This document shows, piece after piece, positions 26,698 through 32,387 of a DNA stretch of 64,000 bases. The notes under the pieces were generated by a model. That model was not told the DNA's origin. It did no database searches and saw nothing but the letters and a program-made list of their open reading frames with translations. The DNA lies in the NCBI GenBank assembly GCA_965218095.1, contig OZ244587.1:2592001-2656000 (forward strand), written 5' to 3'. A program made the translations under genes and the position numbers. Source of the stretch: Candidatus Poribacteria bacterium (GTDB lineage Bacteria > Poribacteria > WGA-4E > PCPOR2b). Numbering within the stretch: the stretch's first letter is position 1; each line of letters begins with the position of its first letter.

Positions 26698-27840
26698 TCA
26701 AGTCACAAGTTCGTAAACCATGATATTCTCCCACTTGTTCTTCGATCGGTGGGTGCCAACACGCTCCTTGAAGCGATTCACAACGGCCAATCCCGCATCT
26801 CCGATCATCGCTTCCAGATTGGAGATTGCTTTTGTGCCGGAGGCATCCGCGTATCCGATTAGAAGATGCCCCCCTGCTTTGAGATAGCCAGGAACCTCGC
26901 GGAAGAACGTCCGGAGTGTGCGCTGTTTCTCATCGTGGATGGCGATTTCCGCCCGACTCCGTACTCGTGAGACCACCCACGGGGCGTTGAAAATGATGAG
27001 GTCAAAACAGAGTCCGGATACCGGCTGGAAGAGATCCCCCGCTGGCATGACATTGATTTGTGAAGGAAAACTGTGAATATCGCTGAAACGCTGGACGTTC
27101 AACCGACTTGTTGCAACCGCCTCGGGCAGCAGATCTGAGGCGTAGATTCTCGCAGCTTGATTGCCCAATTCCTGCGCGGCGAGTAGGGTGAGAGACCCGC
27201 AGCCACAGCCCATATCGAGCACTGTCGCTTTGGGCGGCAGGTACACGTTGACGCTTCGCAGCCCATGCTGAAAGAGTCCGATCGTTTCTTGAGAATGGGG
27301 TGGAAGTACATTTTCTGACGCAAGCAGTGACATACCGAGGGCGTGAACCGGATAGGTTTCTGCGAGGGCGTTTTGGATTTTCTGGAGCGTGACAATGGGG
27401 ATTAAGAATGGACACGCCTCGTTTGCCCTCGGATTTTCCCCGACCAACTCCAAGAGATATGGCAGGTCTGGTGGCGGGTCTACCTGCAAGATGCCGGTTT
27501 CATCTGCCCAGCACATCAAGCGTGACGTTGGGTCTGCCTGTTCTTGCACCGATGTGCGTCTGGAATTCGATTTGGTGTTCCGTTTCCCTTTTGATCGCTG
27601 CGATGGACGAGTCAACTCTTTCTGTTTCCGCTCGATATATGTCATCACTGCTGTCACTTGTTCCCATTCACCCGACAGAATCGGCACACCACCACGCCGA
27701 AGGTGGGTGAAGATCCGATTCAGGCGCCCGAGCTCGTGGCTTGTGAATAGCTTCAGCGGGGCGTCGTCGGGGGCAATCTCTCGAAATTGCGTCGGTACGT
27801 AAATATCACCGATGCCGTTGACTCGGTAGAATGGCGACAT
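26698..27840 (-). CDS. Class I SAM-dependent methyltransferase (MTS/HemK-like)
   Basis: LDMGCGCG, GDLF, FDLIIFNAPW. Confidence 0.8.
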   Translation of the reverse strand: MSPFYRVNGIGDIYVPTQFREIAPDDAPLKLFTSHELGRLNRIFTHLRRGGVPILSGEWEQVTAVMTYIERKQKELTRPSQRSKGKRNTKSNSRRTSVQEQADPTSRLMCWADETGILQVDPPPDLPYLLELVGENPRANEACPFLIPIVTLQKIQNALAETYPVHALGMSLLASENVLPPHSQETIGLFQHGLRSVNVYLPPKATVLDMGCGCGSLTLLAAQELGNQAARIYASDLLPEAVATSRLNVQRFSDIHSFPSQINVMPAGDLFQPVSGLCFDLIIFNAPWVVSRVRSRAEIAIHDEKQRTLRTFFREVPGYLKAGGHLLIGYADASGTKAISNLEAMIGDAGLAVVNRFKERVGTHRSKNKWENIMVYELVT

Positions 27841-27889: not shown

Positions 27890-29215
27890 CTAACCAGCCA
27901 GAATATACCGAACTACAAAAAGCAGGGCGAAGAGATAGATCAGCCAATGCACCTGTTTTCCTTGACCGCTTACCAGTTTCAGAAGCGTGTAGGAGATAAA
28001 CCCAAACGCGATTCCCTCTGTGATGCTGAAGGTGAGGGGCATCATCAAGAGCGTCAAGAATGCAGGGATGGCCTCTGTCACGTTGTCCCAATCGATGTGG
28101 ACAACGTTTTTGAGCATCAGGCTCCCAACGATAATCAGCGCGGGAGCGATGATAGGATAGAGGAACGCATTTTCGCCAATTTGGCACCCCGCCCCGACCA
28201 TCTTGATGAGTGGGTTGAAGAACAACGCGAGCAGCATCAGTGCCGCCGTCACCATGTTGGTTAAGCCGGTGCGACCGCCCACAGAAATCCCCGACGCACT
28301 TTCGATGTAACTAGTGACGGTTGATGTGCCGAGCAGCGCACCGGCGCTTGTGGCAACCGCATCGGACAGCAGCGCCTGTCGCGCTTTCGGTAATTTGCCA
28401 TTGACCATCAAGCCCGCTTATTGACTGACACCGACTAGTGTTCCGACAGTATCGAACAGATCCAGGAAGATGAAGATAAAAATTACCGAATTCATTTTCT
28501 GGTCTACGAGAATGTTCGGGATTTGGAGTTTAAGGAAGGTGGGACCGATGGACGGCGGAGTGTCAACAAAGCCTTGAAATTTAACCATGCCGGTGATGAG
28601 CCCAACAACCGTTGAAGCGAGGATGCCGATCAGGATTGCACCGCGCACTTTTAGGGCGAACAGGATAGCGATCACGACTACTCCGAATAACGAGAGCAAT
28701 GCCGGAGGCGATTTCAGATCGCCGAGGGTGACATAGGTCGCCGGATGGCCAACGATAAGCCCTGCCCATTCTAAGCCCACAAGTGCGATGAGCAACCCAA
28801 TTCCAGCAGGGATAGCGTTCCTCAACGAAACAGGCAGAATAGTCATCACCTTTTCACGCAGACCGACAAAGAAGAGCAGAATAAACAGCACACCTGCAAT
28901 AAAAACGGCACCGAGCGCGTTTTGCCACGATACACCGAGGGTGAGACAGACCGTGAAGGTGAAGTAGAAGTTATGTCCCATCCCCGGTGCAAGGGCAATG
29001 GGATAGTCGGCGAGGAGTGCCATCAGCACCATTGCCAATGCACTTGTGATGCAGGTTGCCGCCATTACTGCACCCGGATCCATCCCCGCTGCTGACAGCA
29101 CCGCCGGCTGGACGAAGATGATATACGAAAGTGTCATGAACGTTGTGCAGCCTGCAACGATTTCACGTTTGACAGTTGTTCCTGACTCTTGTAAGTGGAA
29201 CAATTTTTCGAGCAT
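27890..29215 (-). pseudogene. AzgA/NCS2 purine permease with in-frame TAA at 28418-28420
   Basis: AGCTTFMTLSYI, LAPGMG, FDTVGTL..SQ*AGL..TSYIESASG, GGRTGL. Confidence 0.9.
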
Positions 29216-29233: not shown

Positions 29234-29875
29234 TTATTCAAGAATCACTTTTCTAAATGTTAGCGATACCCTACGCTGCCTCTCATACGTTTGACCAGTC
29301 CATGTATCGGATTTTCTGGGGGCGATACCGTGCAACCATCCATACCTAGCTTCATCTTTCAACACAATAATACTTCTTGGTGCAAGCCAGACAGGAATCT
29401 TTTTTGCCTTGTCCCGTTTGTTTGTAAAATCCATAATACAACCTGAACCCAAACTCAAAGAGACAATCATATTCGCAAAACAAGGTTCGCAATCAATGTG
29501 ACTGGAAATCCCTTGCCCTGGCTCGTACTCATTGACAATAACCTGATCTGGTTCTGCTGCCATGTAATCATCTTCGTACAGTTTTCGACCAAGTTTTTGC
29601 AGCCACTCTGGTAACTGACCAATACGCATATCATGATTGACCTTCCGCGCTTTATAGTCGTACTTGAAACCATAATGCTGAACACGCCGCTTTAGATCTT
29701 CGAGCCATTGGTGTTTGTCAATCTGATCTAACAACCAATTATGCTCGCTTTTATCAATGTAGTCTTCTATGTATTTGAATCCTCTGATTGCATCAATAAC
29801 TTCCTTATTGTTTGGAGAAGGTTGTGGCAGAGGAGATTGTTGGTCAGTAAGGGTAAAGAGGTCTAGTTGTGCCAT
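29234..29875 (-). CDS. AlkB-family 2OG-Fe(II) dioxygenase with N-terminal QLDLF motif
   Basis: RRVQHYG..YDY, VNEYEPGQGISSHID, WLHGI, RRVSLTFR. Confidence 0.9.
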   Translation of the reverse strand: MAQLDLFTLTDQQSPLPQPSPNNKEVIDAIRGFKYIEDYIDKSEHNWLLDQIDKHQWLEDLKRRVQHYGFKYDYKARKVNHDMRIGQLPEWLQKLGRKLYEDDYMAAEPDQVIVNEYEPGQGISSHIDCEPCFANMIVSLSLGSGCIMDFTNKRDKAKKIPVWLAPRSIIVLKDEARYGWLHGIAPRKSDTWTGQTYERQRRVSLTFRKVILE

Positions 29876-29899
29876 TGGTCTGCCCTCCTTAAGTCGATT

Positions 29900-30778
29900 T
29901 TATCCGTTGAAAAGTATATCATAGTAAACATTGGCATTTCGAGGTAAACTAGTTGTTAGACTATCATAACGAAACCGCTGGATATTTGATTGGGTTACTA
30001 CACTTCTGAATCCCGAAAGGTTAGCTTTGAGGGTTTCCCAATTTGCGCGCAGTGATGAGGAATTGGGATTCTGATACACTATGCACATATTATGTTTACT
30101 ATATTTTTCCATAACCTGAACTATTACATCAGATAAGTCATTGATGTTTAACGTCCGGCTTGCAAGGAAGTAGCAGAAGTTAAAGATAATCGGTATCTTA
30201 TCATCCCATGTTAGAGAAGTATCCAATAGCTCAGTCAATTGGCTGTAGTCGCTAATTGTTTCAAATCTGCTAAAGAAGGAACTTCCATATTGATTAGGAC
30301 CATATTGGTCGATTTCCTGTGCCTTATTACGCATTGCTCGTGAATACTCAACTCCTAAATAAATGCTGTTGAGCATCCTTGCAAAAGTCCAAAACGCAAT
30401 ACCTGAAGTTAATGGCCCACACCCAAAGTCAATAAAAACAATTTTATTGATTACCGATATGAAGTGAGTTCTAAAGAACCATGCATGAAGACGAAATATA
30501 TGATAAGAGCTGACAAGGTGCATAGGCATATAATGAGCGCAATAAATTAACACCTTATCTTCTGGAGTAAGTCCATTAAAGGGCTCATCAATATTGGTTC
30601 TCCCTCGGTCCAGGATGATTTCTCTATGGTAGGTTTCACTTCTATTTTTCACCTCGTTTTGCCATGCTTGCGTCGGCGGATGATTGTTAATTGGCTGTTT
30701 GACCAGATTTTCAAACAATCCGCTTAGACTTCCACTGAACGCATATCTATTGCCTGAATAGTTTTGTATGTAGCGCAT
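29900..30778 (-). CDS. Uncharacterised SAM-methyltransferase-fold protein, AT-rich
   Basis: Motif I-like FIDFGCGP, motif II-like YLGVE..AM; RBS upstream. Confidence 0.6.
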   Translation of the reverse strand: MRYIQNYSGNRYAFSGSLSGLFENLVKQPINNHPPTQAWQNEVKNRSETYHREIILDRGRTNIDEPFNGLTPEDKVLIYCAHYMPMHLVSSYHIFRLHAWFFRTHFISVINKIVFIDFGCGPLTSGIAFWTFARMLNSIYLGVEYSRAMRNKAQEIDQYGPNQYGSSFFSRFETISDYSQLTELLDTSLTWDDKIPIIFNFCYFLASRTLNINDLSDVIVQVMEKYSKHNMCIVYQNPNSSSLRANWETLKANLSGFRSVVTQSNIQRFRYDSLTTSLPRNANVYYDILFNG

Positions 30779-30803: not shown

Positions 30804-32231
30804 TTAAGGTTGCCTGTTTTGCGTCAACTGCTCCAATAAATTCTCCAATCCCGGACTCAAAACAACAGGATATTTTTCCGCTTCTGTCAACCTTTTATAG
30901 GGTTCAGGCAATTTCGCTAGCTCAGCCTTCGCTTTTACCTGCATTTCCGCTGAGTCAGGGAATGAATAGACTAACTCTCCCTTACGAACCACCGGCACTA
31001 GCAGCGGCTCGCTTCCCTGCAAATCTTCATCCCAGAGGCTGATCACATCTTTAATGTAGTTTCCGTCAGCATCGCATAAGCGATGGAGCTGCTTCCTACC
31101 CGGAAGGGTTGATTTGCTTGTGTCTTCGCTTAATTTCATCGTGCTGGTCGCTTCCTTGCCCTCGATCCGCTCGACATGCTTGTAGACGCCAGGCAGCGCA
31201 GATGGACCGCCTTCACCCGTCAGCGAATTAAAATTCGCCCCCGTCGCCAAACGGGTACCGACGCCAAAGCCGTCAATCGGGGCGCCTGCTTGTAGTAATC
31301 GATCAATCTGAAATTCGTCGAGATCGTTGCTGGCAAAAATTTCGACGTCGTTGAATCCCGCCTCATCAAAGATCTCTCTCGCTGCCTTGCTGAGTGTGAG
31401 CAGATCGCCGCTGTCAAGCCGAACCCCTCTCAGCTGTTCGCCCCTTGCCTGCATCTCTACCCCAACGATGCAGGCGTTTTTTGCTCCCTGAATCGTGTCA
31501 TAGGTGTCAATTAGCAAGAGGGTGTTATAGGGAAAAGATTGGGCATAATCGCGAAACGCCTCTAACTCGGACGGGCGGTCCAGAATGAATTTGTGCGCGA
31601 TTGTCCCGACGTAAGGGATATTGAAGTATTGCCCGGCGATCACCAGGGACGTCCCAGCGGCGCCACCGACGAATGACGCCCGTGCTGCCAAGATGCCGGC
31701 ATCTCGCCCATGCGCCCTTCGCGCCCCGAAATCGAAGCAGGTTCGTCCGCGCGCCGCATGAACGATTCGCGCCATCTTCGTGGCAATCAATGTCTGGAAA
31801 TTCATCACACTAAGAAGATAGGTCTCGAAGAACTGCACGTCGATCGATCGACCCTTAACGTTGATCAGCGGCTCGTTGGCGAATACGGGTGTCCCTTCAG
31901 GTACTGCGGAGACATCACCATCAAATTTGAACTCGCTCAGGTAATCGAGGAAATCATCGCTCATATCCGGCGTTGCCTTGCTTTCCTTCAACCACCTCAA
32001 ATCTGCATCCGTAAAGCGCAGGTTCAAGATGTAGTGGATAACCTGCTCTAATCCTGCCACTATCAGATACTCCCCCTGCGGGATGGAGCGGACAAAGTAG
32101 TTCTCAGTGCAGATTGCGTTGTTCCCACTGTCAAAATCCGCCTTGCCCATCGTGAACTCGTAATAGTCCGTGAACAACGCCATATTCGATTCGGTGAGGA
32201 GTCCGGATTGGGGTGCTTTCGCCATAGTCAT
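30804..32231 (-). CDS. pncB: Nicotinate phosphoribosyltransferase
   Basis: LFTDYYEFTM, DFGARRAH, GTIAH, LIDTYD, RLDSGD, FGVGT. Confidence 0.93.
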   Translation of the reverse strand: MTMAKAPQSGLLTESNMALFTDYYEFTMGKADFDSGNNAICTENYFVRSIPQGEYLIVAGLEQVIHYILNLRFTDADLRWLKESKATPDMSDDFLDYLSEFKFDGDVSAVPEGTPVFANEPLINVKGRSIDVQFFETYLLSVMNFQTLIATKMARIVHAARGRTCFDFGARRAHGRDAGILAARASFVGGAAGTSLVIAGQYFNIPYVGTIAHKFILDRPSELEAFRDYAQSFPYNTLLLIDTYDTIQGAKNACIVGVEMQARGEQLRGVRLDSGDLLTLSKAAREIFDEAGFNDVEIFASNDLDEFQIDRLLQAGAPIDGFGVGTRLATGANFNSLTGEGGPSALPGVYKHVERIEGKEATSTMKLSEDTSKSTLPGRKQLHRLCDADGNYIKDVISLWDEDLQGSEPLLVPVVRKGELVYSFPDSAEMQVKAKAELAKLPEPYKRLTEAEKYPVVLSPGLENLLEQLTQNRQP

Positions 32232-32387
32232 TGTGCCTTTTTTGCAAAAAATACGAGTTTTTTCACTTGTGGGTGAAGTAAAATATGTCCGATTTTCGGA
32301 CGAGCACTGCCAGTTGAGATGAGCGAAATCCCGCGTAGCGGGGCTTGTTTTTAAGGACATGCACCCCCTGAACAAGTAAGTCCGTCC

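Follow-up and report, generated by a model that had tools for sequence, protein, structure and literature searches.

Within a 64,000-nt stretch of DNA from Candidatus Poribacteria bacterium (contig OZ244587.1, positions 2,592,001 to 2,656,000, of assembly GCA_965218095.1; hereafter the window), two adjacent minus-strand open reading frames (ORFs) of 292 and 213 residues, here called gene 1 and gene 2, raise the question of what an uncharacterised methyltransferase and an AlkB-type dioxygenase do side by side. An earlier note, made from the letters of the window, had proposed a methylation-based toxin and antidote, analogous in logic to DarTG. The answer that we tentatively favour, with a confidence that stays somewhat below even, is a mobile two-gene conflict module, i.e., a DNA-directed writer and eraser in which an N3-pyrimidine mark set by gene 1 would be erased by a clamp-tethered AlkB (gene 2) at the host replication fork.

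The pairing itself recurs well beyond the window. Among 72 loci of Poribacteria and Latescibacterota, an AlkB gene lies in the locus in 52 and starts at most 400 nt downstream of the methyltransferase gene in 43, and tandem arrays of the two-gene unit are common. At distant loci (ca. 26–30% identity), AlkB comes next, in the same order, in 18 of the 21 that include downstream sequence, i.e., on three of three Picosynechococcus plasmids, in five of eight Bacteroidota genomes (one with both genes broken) and on 10 of 10 metagenome contigs, three further contigs having ended too soon for AlkB to be scored. Since several of these distant loci are close kin, the independent cases are fewer, roughly a dozen. 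Three genomes carry both genes in one ORF. When genomes were sampled by phylum, the methyltransferase was present in 3 and this type of AlkB in 6 of 401 Bacteroidota genomes, adjacent in all three (though one of these, G177, is possibly misbinned, as it includes a contig of Poribacteria-like character), and in 7 and 8, respectively, of 151 Latescibacterota genomes, together in 7 of 7 (close kin, with one locus). A further sample of 68 genomes held the writer in five and AlkB in two; both AlkB genomes had the writer, and three writers stood alone. The co-occurrence on which the earlier note had pinned its proposal was thus found. Judged from gene order, the two genes form a conserved two-gene operon, the arrangement by which toxin-antitoxin systems are recognised, and a real module, shared across phyla and apparently undescribed: the literature searched contained no description of the pair, supplements and subscription journals, which could mention it, lying outside its scope. 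The possibly misbinned contig (L067) belongs to a genome titled Ekhidna sp., and its copies are Poribacteria-like (40–49% identity, same array layout).

Gene 1 had no Pfam match and nothing meaningful in NCBIfam, and of the PADLOC models only C3a159 matched it (E 1.5e-23 over 255 residues), a profile that was also matched by 26 of 30 gene 1 homologues. Its AlphaFold model (predicted local distance difference test, pLDDT, of 93) is closest to human METTL17 (8csp_7; VIA Z 21.3, root-mean-square deviation 3.2, 241 aligned, model residues 6–292), followed by the Rsm22 chains of a trypanosome (6sg9_F1; Z 20.9) and of yeast (8d8j_0; Z 16.8), with the next unrelated structure at 14.0. Foldseek, which the earlier note had suggested for gene 1, agreed with this ranking, the METTL17/Rsm22 group filling its top four places. 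The structural likeness takes in the N-terminal helical lobe. Sequence identity to these matches is 12%, the METTL17/Rsm22 family model PF09243 matched neither gene 1 nor its homologues beyond one of 60 at E 0.046, and many small-molecule methyltransferases score Z 12–14 against the same model.

By its Rossmann-like fold and its motifs, gene 1 is a class I S-adenosylmethionine (SAM)-dependent methyltransferase. All 54 close and all 60 distant homologues keep D117, G119 and G121 of motif I; G59, Y79 and H87 are equally invariant in the 60 distant ones, N200, Y203 and Q236 are kept in at least 90% of them, and an acidic residue (D/E144) stands at the end of strand 2 in 77 of 77 sequences. As the earlier note had read, gene 1 contains FIDFGCGP and neither DPPY/NPPY nor PC; a proline-free conserved N-x-x-Y (N200–Y203) lies at the end of strand 4. 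A restriction-modification (R-M) methyltransferase, whether N6A/N4C or C5, was ruled out, as neither [DNS]PP[YFW] nor PC was present and no R-M model matched. Ring-nitrogen methylation requires neither NPPY nor PC, and their absence therefore fits such a reaction, which we infer for gene 1. As a lead only, PF11312, the family of Bmt6, a 3-methyluridine (m3U) rRNA enzyme, was found on 14% of the members of one Atlas cluster. The gene 1 family is of moderate size, with 413 proteins after clustering at 90% and 401 representatives when clustered at 50%. No RNA-binding accessory domain, OB-fold or zinc/Fe-S extension was evident from Pfam or the model on the 292-residue form. The RT_UG35 model, which gene 1 itself does not match, gave weak matches over its N-terminal part with two distant homologues (E 7e-8 and 3e-7).

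Gene 2 matches PF13532 above cut-off (E 2e-26), and the intact HxD..H..R..R reported in the earlier note stood up to alignment, H126, D128, H182, R202 and R208 being invariant in 70 of 70 full-length homologues. Its place among canonical AlkB enzymes did not: the solved sequence nearest to gene 2 is human ALKBH8 (3thp; E 4.8e-30 vs. 6e-7 for E. coli AlkB), in an alignment that spans residues 32–192 and includes the lid region, and the NCBIfam cut-offs for the canonical E. coli type (group 1A) were missed (51.7 against 267 and 42.9 against 231 bits). By sequence, gene 2 is an ALKBH8-like (group 2A) AlkB and not a canonical one. It also shares 50% identity with the AlkB encoded on Roseobacter plasmid pTB4, which, from its organism, plasmid and length, is taken to be the protein called RD in PMC4051686. 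According to that paper, the RD protein repaired 3-methylcytosine (m3C) and etheno-C in single- and double-stranded DNA in vitro, and it did not repair 1-methyladenine (m1A), 5-methoxycarbonylmethyluridine (mcm5U)-tRNA or RNA phage treated with methyl methanesulfonate (MMS). According to the same text, m1A was not repaired by the tested bacterial ALKBH8-type proteins, which preferred etheno adducts, and the physiological substrate of bacterial ALKBH8-like proteins was left open, with a role in modification being favoured (PMC4051686). The removal of N1-adenine and N3-cytosine methyl groups, which the earlier note had carried over from AlkB enzymes at large, is therefore not simply transferable to gene 2, the m3C repair by the RD protein having been seen only in vitro (PMC4051686).

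Near its N-terminus, in a flexible tail, gene 2 carries QLDLF (residues 3–7), which equals the beta-clamp consensus QL(S/D)LF (PMC11139829) and fits Q-phi-x-[LM]-[FL]. A strict clamp pattern was found in 37 of 71 AlkB tails vs. 68 of 3751 genome ORFs (1.8%), and a looser one, written after the tails had been seen, in 58 of 71 vs. 14.6% (two rows with truncated tails having been dropped from the tail count). The motif persists in linked AlkBs, and the linker behind it varies freely; as a control, four of four Bacteroidota homologues without a nearby methyltransferase open directly with the catalytic domain and lack the tail. The clamp-type motif of the earlier note was thus recovered as a conserved trait of linked AlkBs, a pattern that is blurred by two unlinked plasmid homologues, one from Streptomyces (QLSLG) and one from Roseobacter (ambiguous tail). 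Gene 2 would, by this motif, be held on the beta-clamp by its tail.

Some AlkB genes depart from this layout. Two AlkB ORFs (L186 1246-2073 and L068 7644-8249) open with the first residues of the methyltransferase and are evidently in-frame deletions that removed the writer together with the clamp tail. In one genus, a second, diverged AlkB paralogue (47–59% identity, altered residues after HxD) lies upstream of the pair (L021, L064, L073, L135-L138 and L142), and it persists without the methyltransferase. An unlinked, tail-less ALKBH8-like gene (L176 632-2040) directly follows an ORF whose N-terminal motif suggests an ADP-ribosylglycohydrolase.

Gene 1-type methyltransferases were found fused to a Dna2-like nuclease-helicase, to a 220-residue helical domain (17 sequences), to tetratricopeptide repeats plus coiled coils, and to alanyl-tRNA synthetase. 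In the nuclease-helicase fusions (1430–1477 residues; L125 7735-12168, L169 1000-5418, P0220, P0229, P0242, P0247 and P0252), a PD-(D/E)XK/Dna2-like nuclease and a superfamily 1 helicase (MkoA-like scores) are joined to a C-terminal methyltransferase, and AlkB follows at both loci (L125 and L169). For the N-terminal helical domain of the ca. 500-residue fusions there was no Atlas match, and the structures listed by Foldseek were all taken up with the methyltransferase domain. Two Bacteroidota genomes have a four-gene run (L126 5419-10873 and L168 5021-10200) of a UvrD-like helicase, a 2CompART+2CompARG protein, a helical-domain methyltransferase and AlkB; the two 2CompART+2CompARG proteins are 23% identical, a SAP domain is present in L168, and Wadjet genes follow in L126. 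This run sets an ADP-ribose writer/eraser beside the methyl pair, with two such chemistries in one operon.

Clear defence neighbours occur at about 8 of the 18 distant paired loci (L105-107, L125, L126, L150, L152 and L167), a raw count with no background rate. The pair on Picosynechococcus plasmid pAQ5 adjoins a retron reverse transcriptase (RT), WYL, Abi and a restriction enzyme, and that on pAQ6 adjoins a type III-B CRISPR with Csx1 and WYL; a type III-B CRISPR stands beside the pair on two Picosynechococcus plasmids, and most loci have no CRISPR neighbour. Other defence-side neighbours outside Poribacteria include type II and III R-M, HerA, a DrmD-like helicase, Wadjet and an integrase. 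At other loci, what precedes is of the housekeeping kind (isoleucyl-tRNA synthetase, alanyl-tRNA synthetase by fusion, an integrase). The Poribacteria sites have no defence neighbours other than inserted HicAB or HigBA-like pairs; their content varies, with both genes at some, a single gene at others, and arrays or such inserts elsewhere.

The fold neighbours and the lack of NPPY in gene 1, and the repair of m3C and not m1A by the homologue of gene 2, independently point to N3 of a pyrimidine from both halves of the pair. Because of this agreement, and because the clamp tail would place the oxygenase on replicating DNA, a DNA-acting writer and eraser is favoured; DNA as the target is suggested by the clamp motif, the Dna2-like nuclease-helicase fusions, and the run of helicase and ART/ARG genes (with SAP). 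In the proposed scheme, gene 1 would use SAM to place a methyl group on a pairing-face ring nitrogen of an unpaired base, by which copying would be blocked; the likeliest position is N3 of a pyrimidine (giving m3C, or 3-methylthymine/3-methyluracil, m3T/m3U). Gene 2, docked on the beta-clamp at the host replication fork through QLDLF, would oxidatively remove the mark from host DNA, erasing it rather than leaving a hydroxylated base. The lesion would then stay on nucleic acid that is not copied on the host clamp (e.g., that of a phage with its own replisome), with a presumed anti-phage effect, and also in a cell whose eraser cannot keep pace, where it may be toxic. The writer need not be constitutively lethal, as the eraser has been lost in some clades. 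A more specific form of the idea, unlikely in our estimate but still credible, is a defence in which self and non-self would be set by the location of the eraser and not by a sequence mark: a writer of the METTL17/Rsm22 fold would put a replication-blocking N3-methyl group on any exposed DNA, and the clamp-tethered ALKBH8-type demethylase would clear only DNA copied on the host clamp.

The pattern of gain and loss speaks in part for a toxin and its antidote. Gene 1 was found in 85 and gene 2 in 103 of 176 genomes of the phylum (fragments included). Outside one genus, AlkB is present in 28 of 28 methyltransferase-positive vs. 33 of 83 negative Poribacteria genomes (some AlkBs being broken, and kin not being independent), and in G054 and G055 pncB is directly followed by AlkB, i.e., gene 1 has been cleanly deleted and AlkB kept. 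This is the asymmetry expected of toxin and antidote outside that genus, and to this extent the earlier proposal stood, whereas an obligate relation is contradicted by two clades with solo methyltransferases.

These clades are among several observations that weigh against the conflict module. In one Poribacteria genus, 20 of 57 methyltransferase-bearing genomes lack this AlkB, and a PF13532 match was absent in five of the five single-contig solo genomes tested. Of the 77 sequences placed in a tree, 26 have no full-length AlkB in the locus, and all but one of these (25, of which 5 have AlkB fragments) form one clade, with Arg in place of M86 and with W39 lost; this clade otherwise retains the SAM motif and the invariant residues, and its ratio of nonsynonymous to synonymous substitution rates (dN/dS) is 0.21 (paired sequences 0.33, moaA 0.04), by which decay into pseudogenes was ruled out for the Poribacteria clade. 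A second solo clade (L164-L166) lies divergent next to der, presumably the gene of the Der ribosome GTPase (named from its N-terminal sequence), in three Bacteroidota genomes in which no AlkB was found. A writer that is kept, and apparently functional, without its eraser implies that its target was changed or narrowed, or that it was never constitutively toxic. Moreover, all examined Poribacteria and Latescibacterota copies have housekeeping surroundings, each lineage keeping them at a single fixed site, and none lies in a defence island; two divergent records (L149 4139-7879 and P0199; 53% identical over the shared part) have the methyltransferase fused to the C-terminus of alanyl-tRNA synthetase, and in L147 it begins ca. 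15 nt after the isoleucyl-tRNA synthetase gene. For gene 1 and gene 2 alike, the closest solved structures are of proteins that work on RNA or the ribosome, and the RD protein gave no in vivo rescue of MMS or chloroacetaldehyde damage, an RNA substrate being favoured by its authors (PMC4051686). Finally, searches of phage records and viral contigs, of limited sensitivity, gave no viral copy of gene 1 or gene 2, and BFVD returned only generic methyltransferase matches (TM at most 0.49); a phage-borne copy would have signalled counter-defence. Compensation by a Tag glycosylase was also considered and set aside, with no match in five of five genomes, three of them solo (AlkA-type glycosylases were not searched).

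Several of these points would suit an RNA-directed writer that acts on tRNA or rRNA, benignly or against translation, with a clamp-bound AlkB that only cleans single-stranded fork DNA methylated in passing, and that was dropped by clades whose writer became specific. Its best arguments are the alanyl-tRNA synthetase fusion, the isoleucyl-tRNA synthetase and Der neighbours, and the solo clades, the Poribacteria one being under purifying selection; DNMTs co-occur with ALKB2 for the same reason, i.e., stray methylation. The fold adds to these, since yeast Rsm22 methylates tRNAs in vitro, although what the METTL17/Rsm22 fold methylates is described as unsettled (PMC8171064). We nevertheless consider this explanation unlikely, as the nuclease-helicase fusions, the SAP/ART/ARG operon and the R-M or Wadjet neighbours point to DNA, an RNA-binding accessory domain is not evident on the 292-residue form, and many genomes keep AlkB without the writer. 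Another explanation is a two-step modification, in which gene 1 would methylate and gene 2 hydroxylate to give a stable hypermodified base, the clamp tail coupling this new self-mark to replication. Oxygenase-only states would be useless in such a pathway, yet they are common and intact (33 of the 83 methyltransferase-negative genomes outside one genus have a match, some of these matches being broken); N-methyl groups hydroxylated by AlkB enzymes are normally lost as formaldehyde, and the loci have no cognate nuclease or reader in common. A two-step modification thus seems rather improbable, even though animal ALKBH8 likewise combines methyltransferase and AlkB domains on tRNA and acts as a hydroxylase, gene 2 is nearest to ALKBH8, the order of writer then oxygenase is fixed with single-ORF fusions in three genomes, and a modification role is the one favoured for bacterial ALKBH8 proteins (PMC4051686).

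It is also conceivable that there is no writer/eraser relation at all, and that the pair is a stress or repair cassette in which a fork-tethered AlkB repairs alkyl or etheno damage and gene 1 acts on small molecules or proteins, or binds SAM without catalysis. That each gene survives alone, that small-molecule methyltransferases come close in Z score, and that the catalytic activity of METTL17 is debated would all sit well with such a cassette, as would the etheno preference of ALKBH8-type proteins (PMC4051686). Adjacency and order that are fixed at 26–30% identity across phyla, the fusions, the tandem units and a clamp tail tied to linkage are, however, hard to explain without a shared substrate, and make the cassette very doubtful.

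Set against known systems, the conflict module would follow the logic of DarTG with a new chemistry, an analogy that we hold with a little less than even confidence. Both consist of a nucleic-acid-modifying enzyme and its reverser in two genes, and the pair is found beside defence genes, with an ART+ARG gene ahead of it in two genomes. The chemistry here would be methylation undone by oxidative demethylation, where DarTG uses ADP-ribosylation and hydrolysis; the folds are unrelated, with no protein in common, and, unlike DarTG, the pair has an eraser with a clamp motif and a writer that occurs without eraser in two clades. C3a159, the profile that gene 1 matches, is accessory cluster 159 of type III CRISPR (type III-A/B/C), a 'methyl transferase' with 3 members, for which the available text gives no function or AlkB partner (PMC6546367). 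The pair on two Picosynechococcus plasmids shares this type III setting, whereas the copy in the window has pncB and a permease for neighbours and no type III cas cassette beside it. From METTL17/Rsm22 proteins, which serve mitoribosome assembly and give its best structural matches, gene 1 differs in its 12% identity, its negligible PF09243 score, the lack of an evident OB-fold or zinc/Fe-S extension, and its patchy and mobile distribution. The group 2A AlkBs, to which gene 2 is related through ALKBH8 and the Roseobacter protein, are mainly alphaproteobacterial, and no methyltransferase partner or clamp motif is given for them in the available texts (PMC2790896, PMC4051686); the Roseobacter gene has no methyltransferase neighbour. 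The UG35 methylase-RT fusions, linked to a UvrD-like helicase (PMC9226505), resemble the module in the weak RT_UG35 matches of two distant gene 1 homologues, and differ from it in that the module has no RT and gene 1 does not match. The main text of PMC9503650 contains no mention of AlkB or a methylase.

If the proposed scheme is true, methylation and oxidative demethylation would join the chemistries of writer/eraser conflict systems, and bacterial ALKBH8 proteins would gain their missing physiological substrate. We know of no earlier methylation-damage toxin with an AlkB antidote, and the pair would then be the first. A lesion-writing methyltransferase with its matched eraser could also serve as a labelling tool, and Picosynechococcus PCC 7002, with two native copies, is a tractable laboratory host. 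In any event, the pair makes testable both the substrate of bacterial ALKBH8-like proteins (PMC4051686) and the target of the METTL17/Rsm22 fold (PMC8171064).

The features of the window copy are collected in the table below.

Features of the methyltransferase–AlkB pair and its flanks (positions in the window)
Feature	Position	Strand	Assignment or remark
Gene 1	29900..30778	-	class I SAM methyltransferase, METTL17/Rsm22-like fold, C3a159 family, putative writer
Gene 2	29234..29875	-	ALKBH8-like (group 2A) AlkB dioxygenase, putative eraser
SAM-binding motif I DFGCGP, gene 1 residues 117-122	30413..30430	-	invariant D117, G119, G121
Predicted beta-clamp-binding motif QLDLF, gene 2 residues 3-7, variable linker after	29855..29869	-	consensus match
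Fe(II)-binding HxD (H126-I127-D128) of gene 2; site completed by H182, R202, R208	29492..29500	-	invariant 70/70
AGGAGG ribosome-binding site, gene 2	29884..29889	-	sequence
pncB, upstream flank, outside module	30804..32375	-	Pfam NAPRTase
Purine permease (Xan_ur_permease), downstream flank, outside module	27890..29215	-	Pfam; in-frame stop at codon 266

The earlier description of an AT-rich block with short gaps and ribosome-binding sites, flanked by pncB and a permease, proved accurate. Gene 1 is separated from pncB by 25 nt and from gene 2 by 24 nt, and another 18 nt separate gene 2 from the permease. The ribosome-binding site of gene 2 is AGGAGG at a distance of 8 nt, that of gene 1 a weaker GAGGA at 12 nt, and the 25-nt gap suggests that pncB and the pair are probably co-transcribed. 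Internal promoters were rejected (4 sites vs. 6.4 expected by chance). The block has a G+C content of 0.398, compared with a genome value of 0.500, and thus ranks among the lowest 0.15% when the genome is cut into 4110 tiles of equal size; at every one of 50 full-length loci, the methyltransferase gene is poorer in G+C than its flanks. Low G+C content is therefore a trait of the family and no sign of recent arrival; a recent horizontal arrival was ruled out on this ground and because the site is common to relatives. A functional tie to pncB or the permease was likewise ruled out, as these flanks occur in only 3 of 72 related loci.

Gene 1 and gene 2 each occur once in intact form in the genome. 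Another copy of AlkB (G000:C1:1066719-1067354; L003, L129), 78% identical, has two stops, adjoins insertion sequence elements and has no methyltransferase. Among the sequencing runs, all of them assembled contigs, the one RNA run gave only diverged pieces. The interruption of the permease gene is an in-frame TAA, and relatives (L005, L006) have one ORF of 441 residues; across this site, one contig of run X1 is identical to the window, and three other runs have a different base. Beyond the permease, a HemK/MTS-like class I methyltransferase (26698-27840, minus strand) is kept at the site in relatives with or without the pair.

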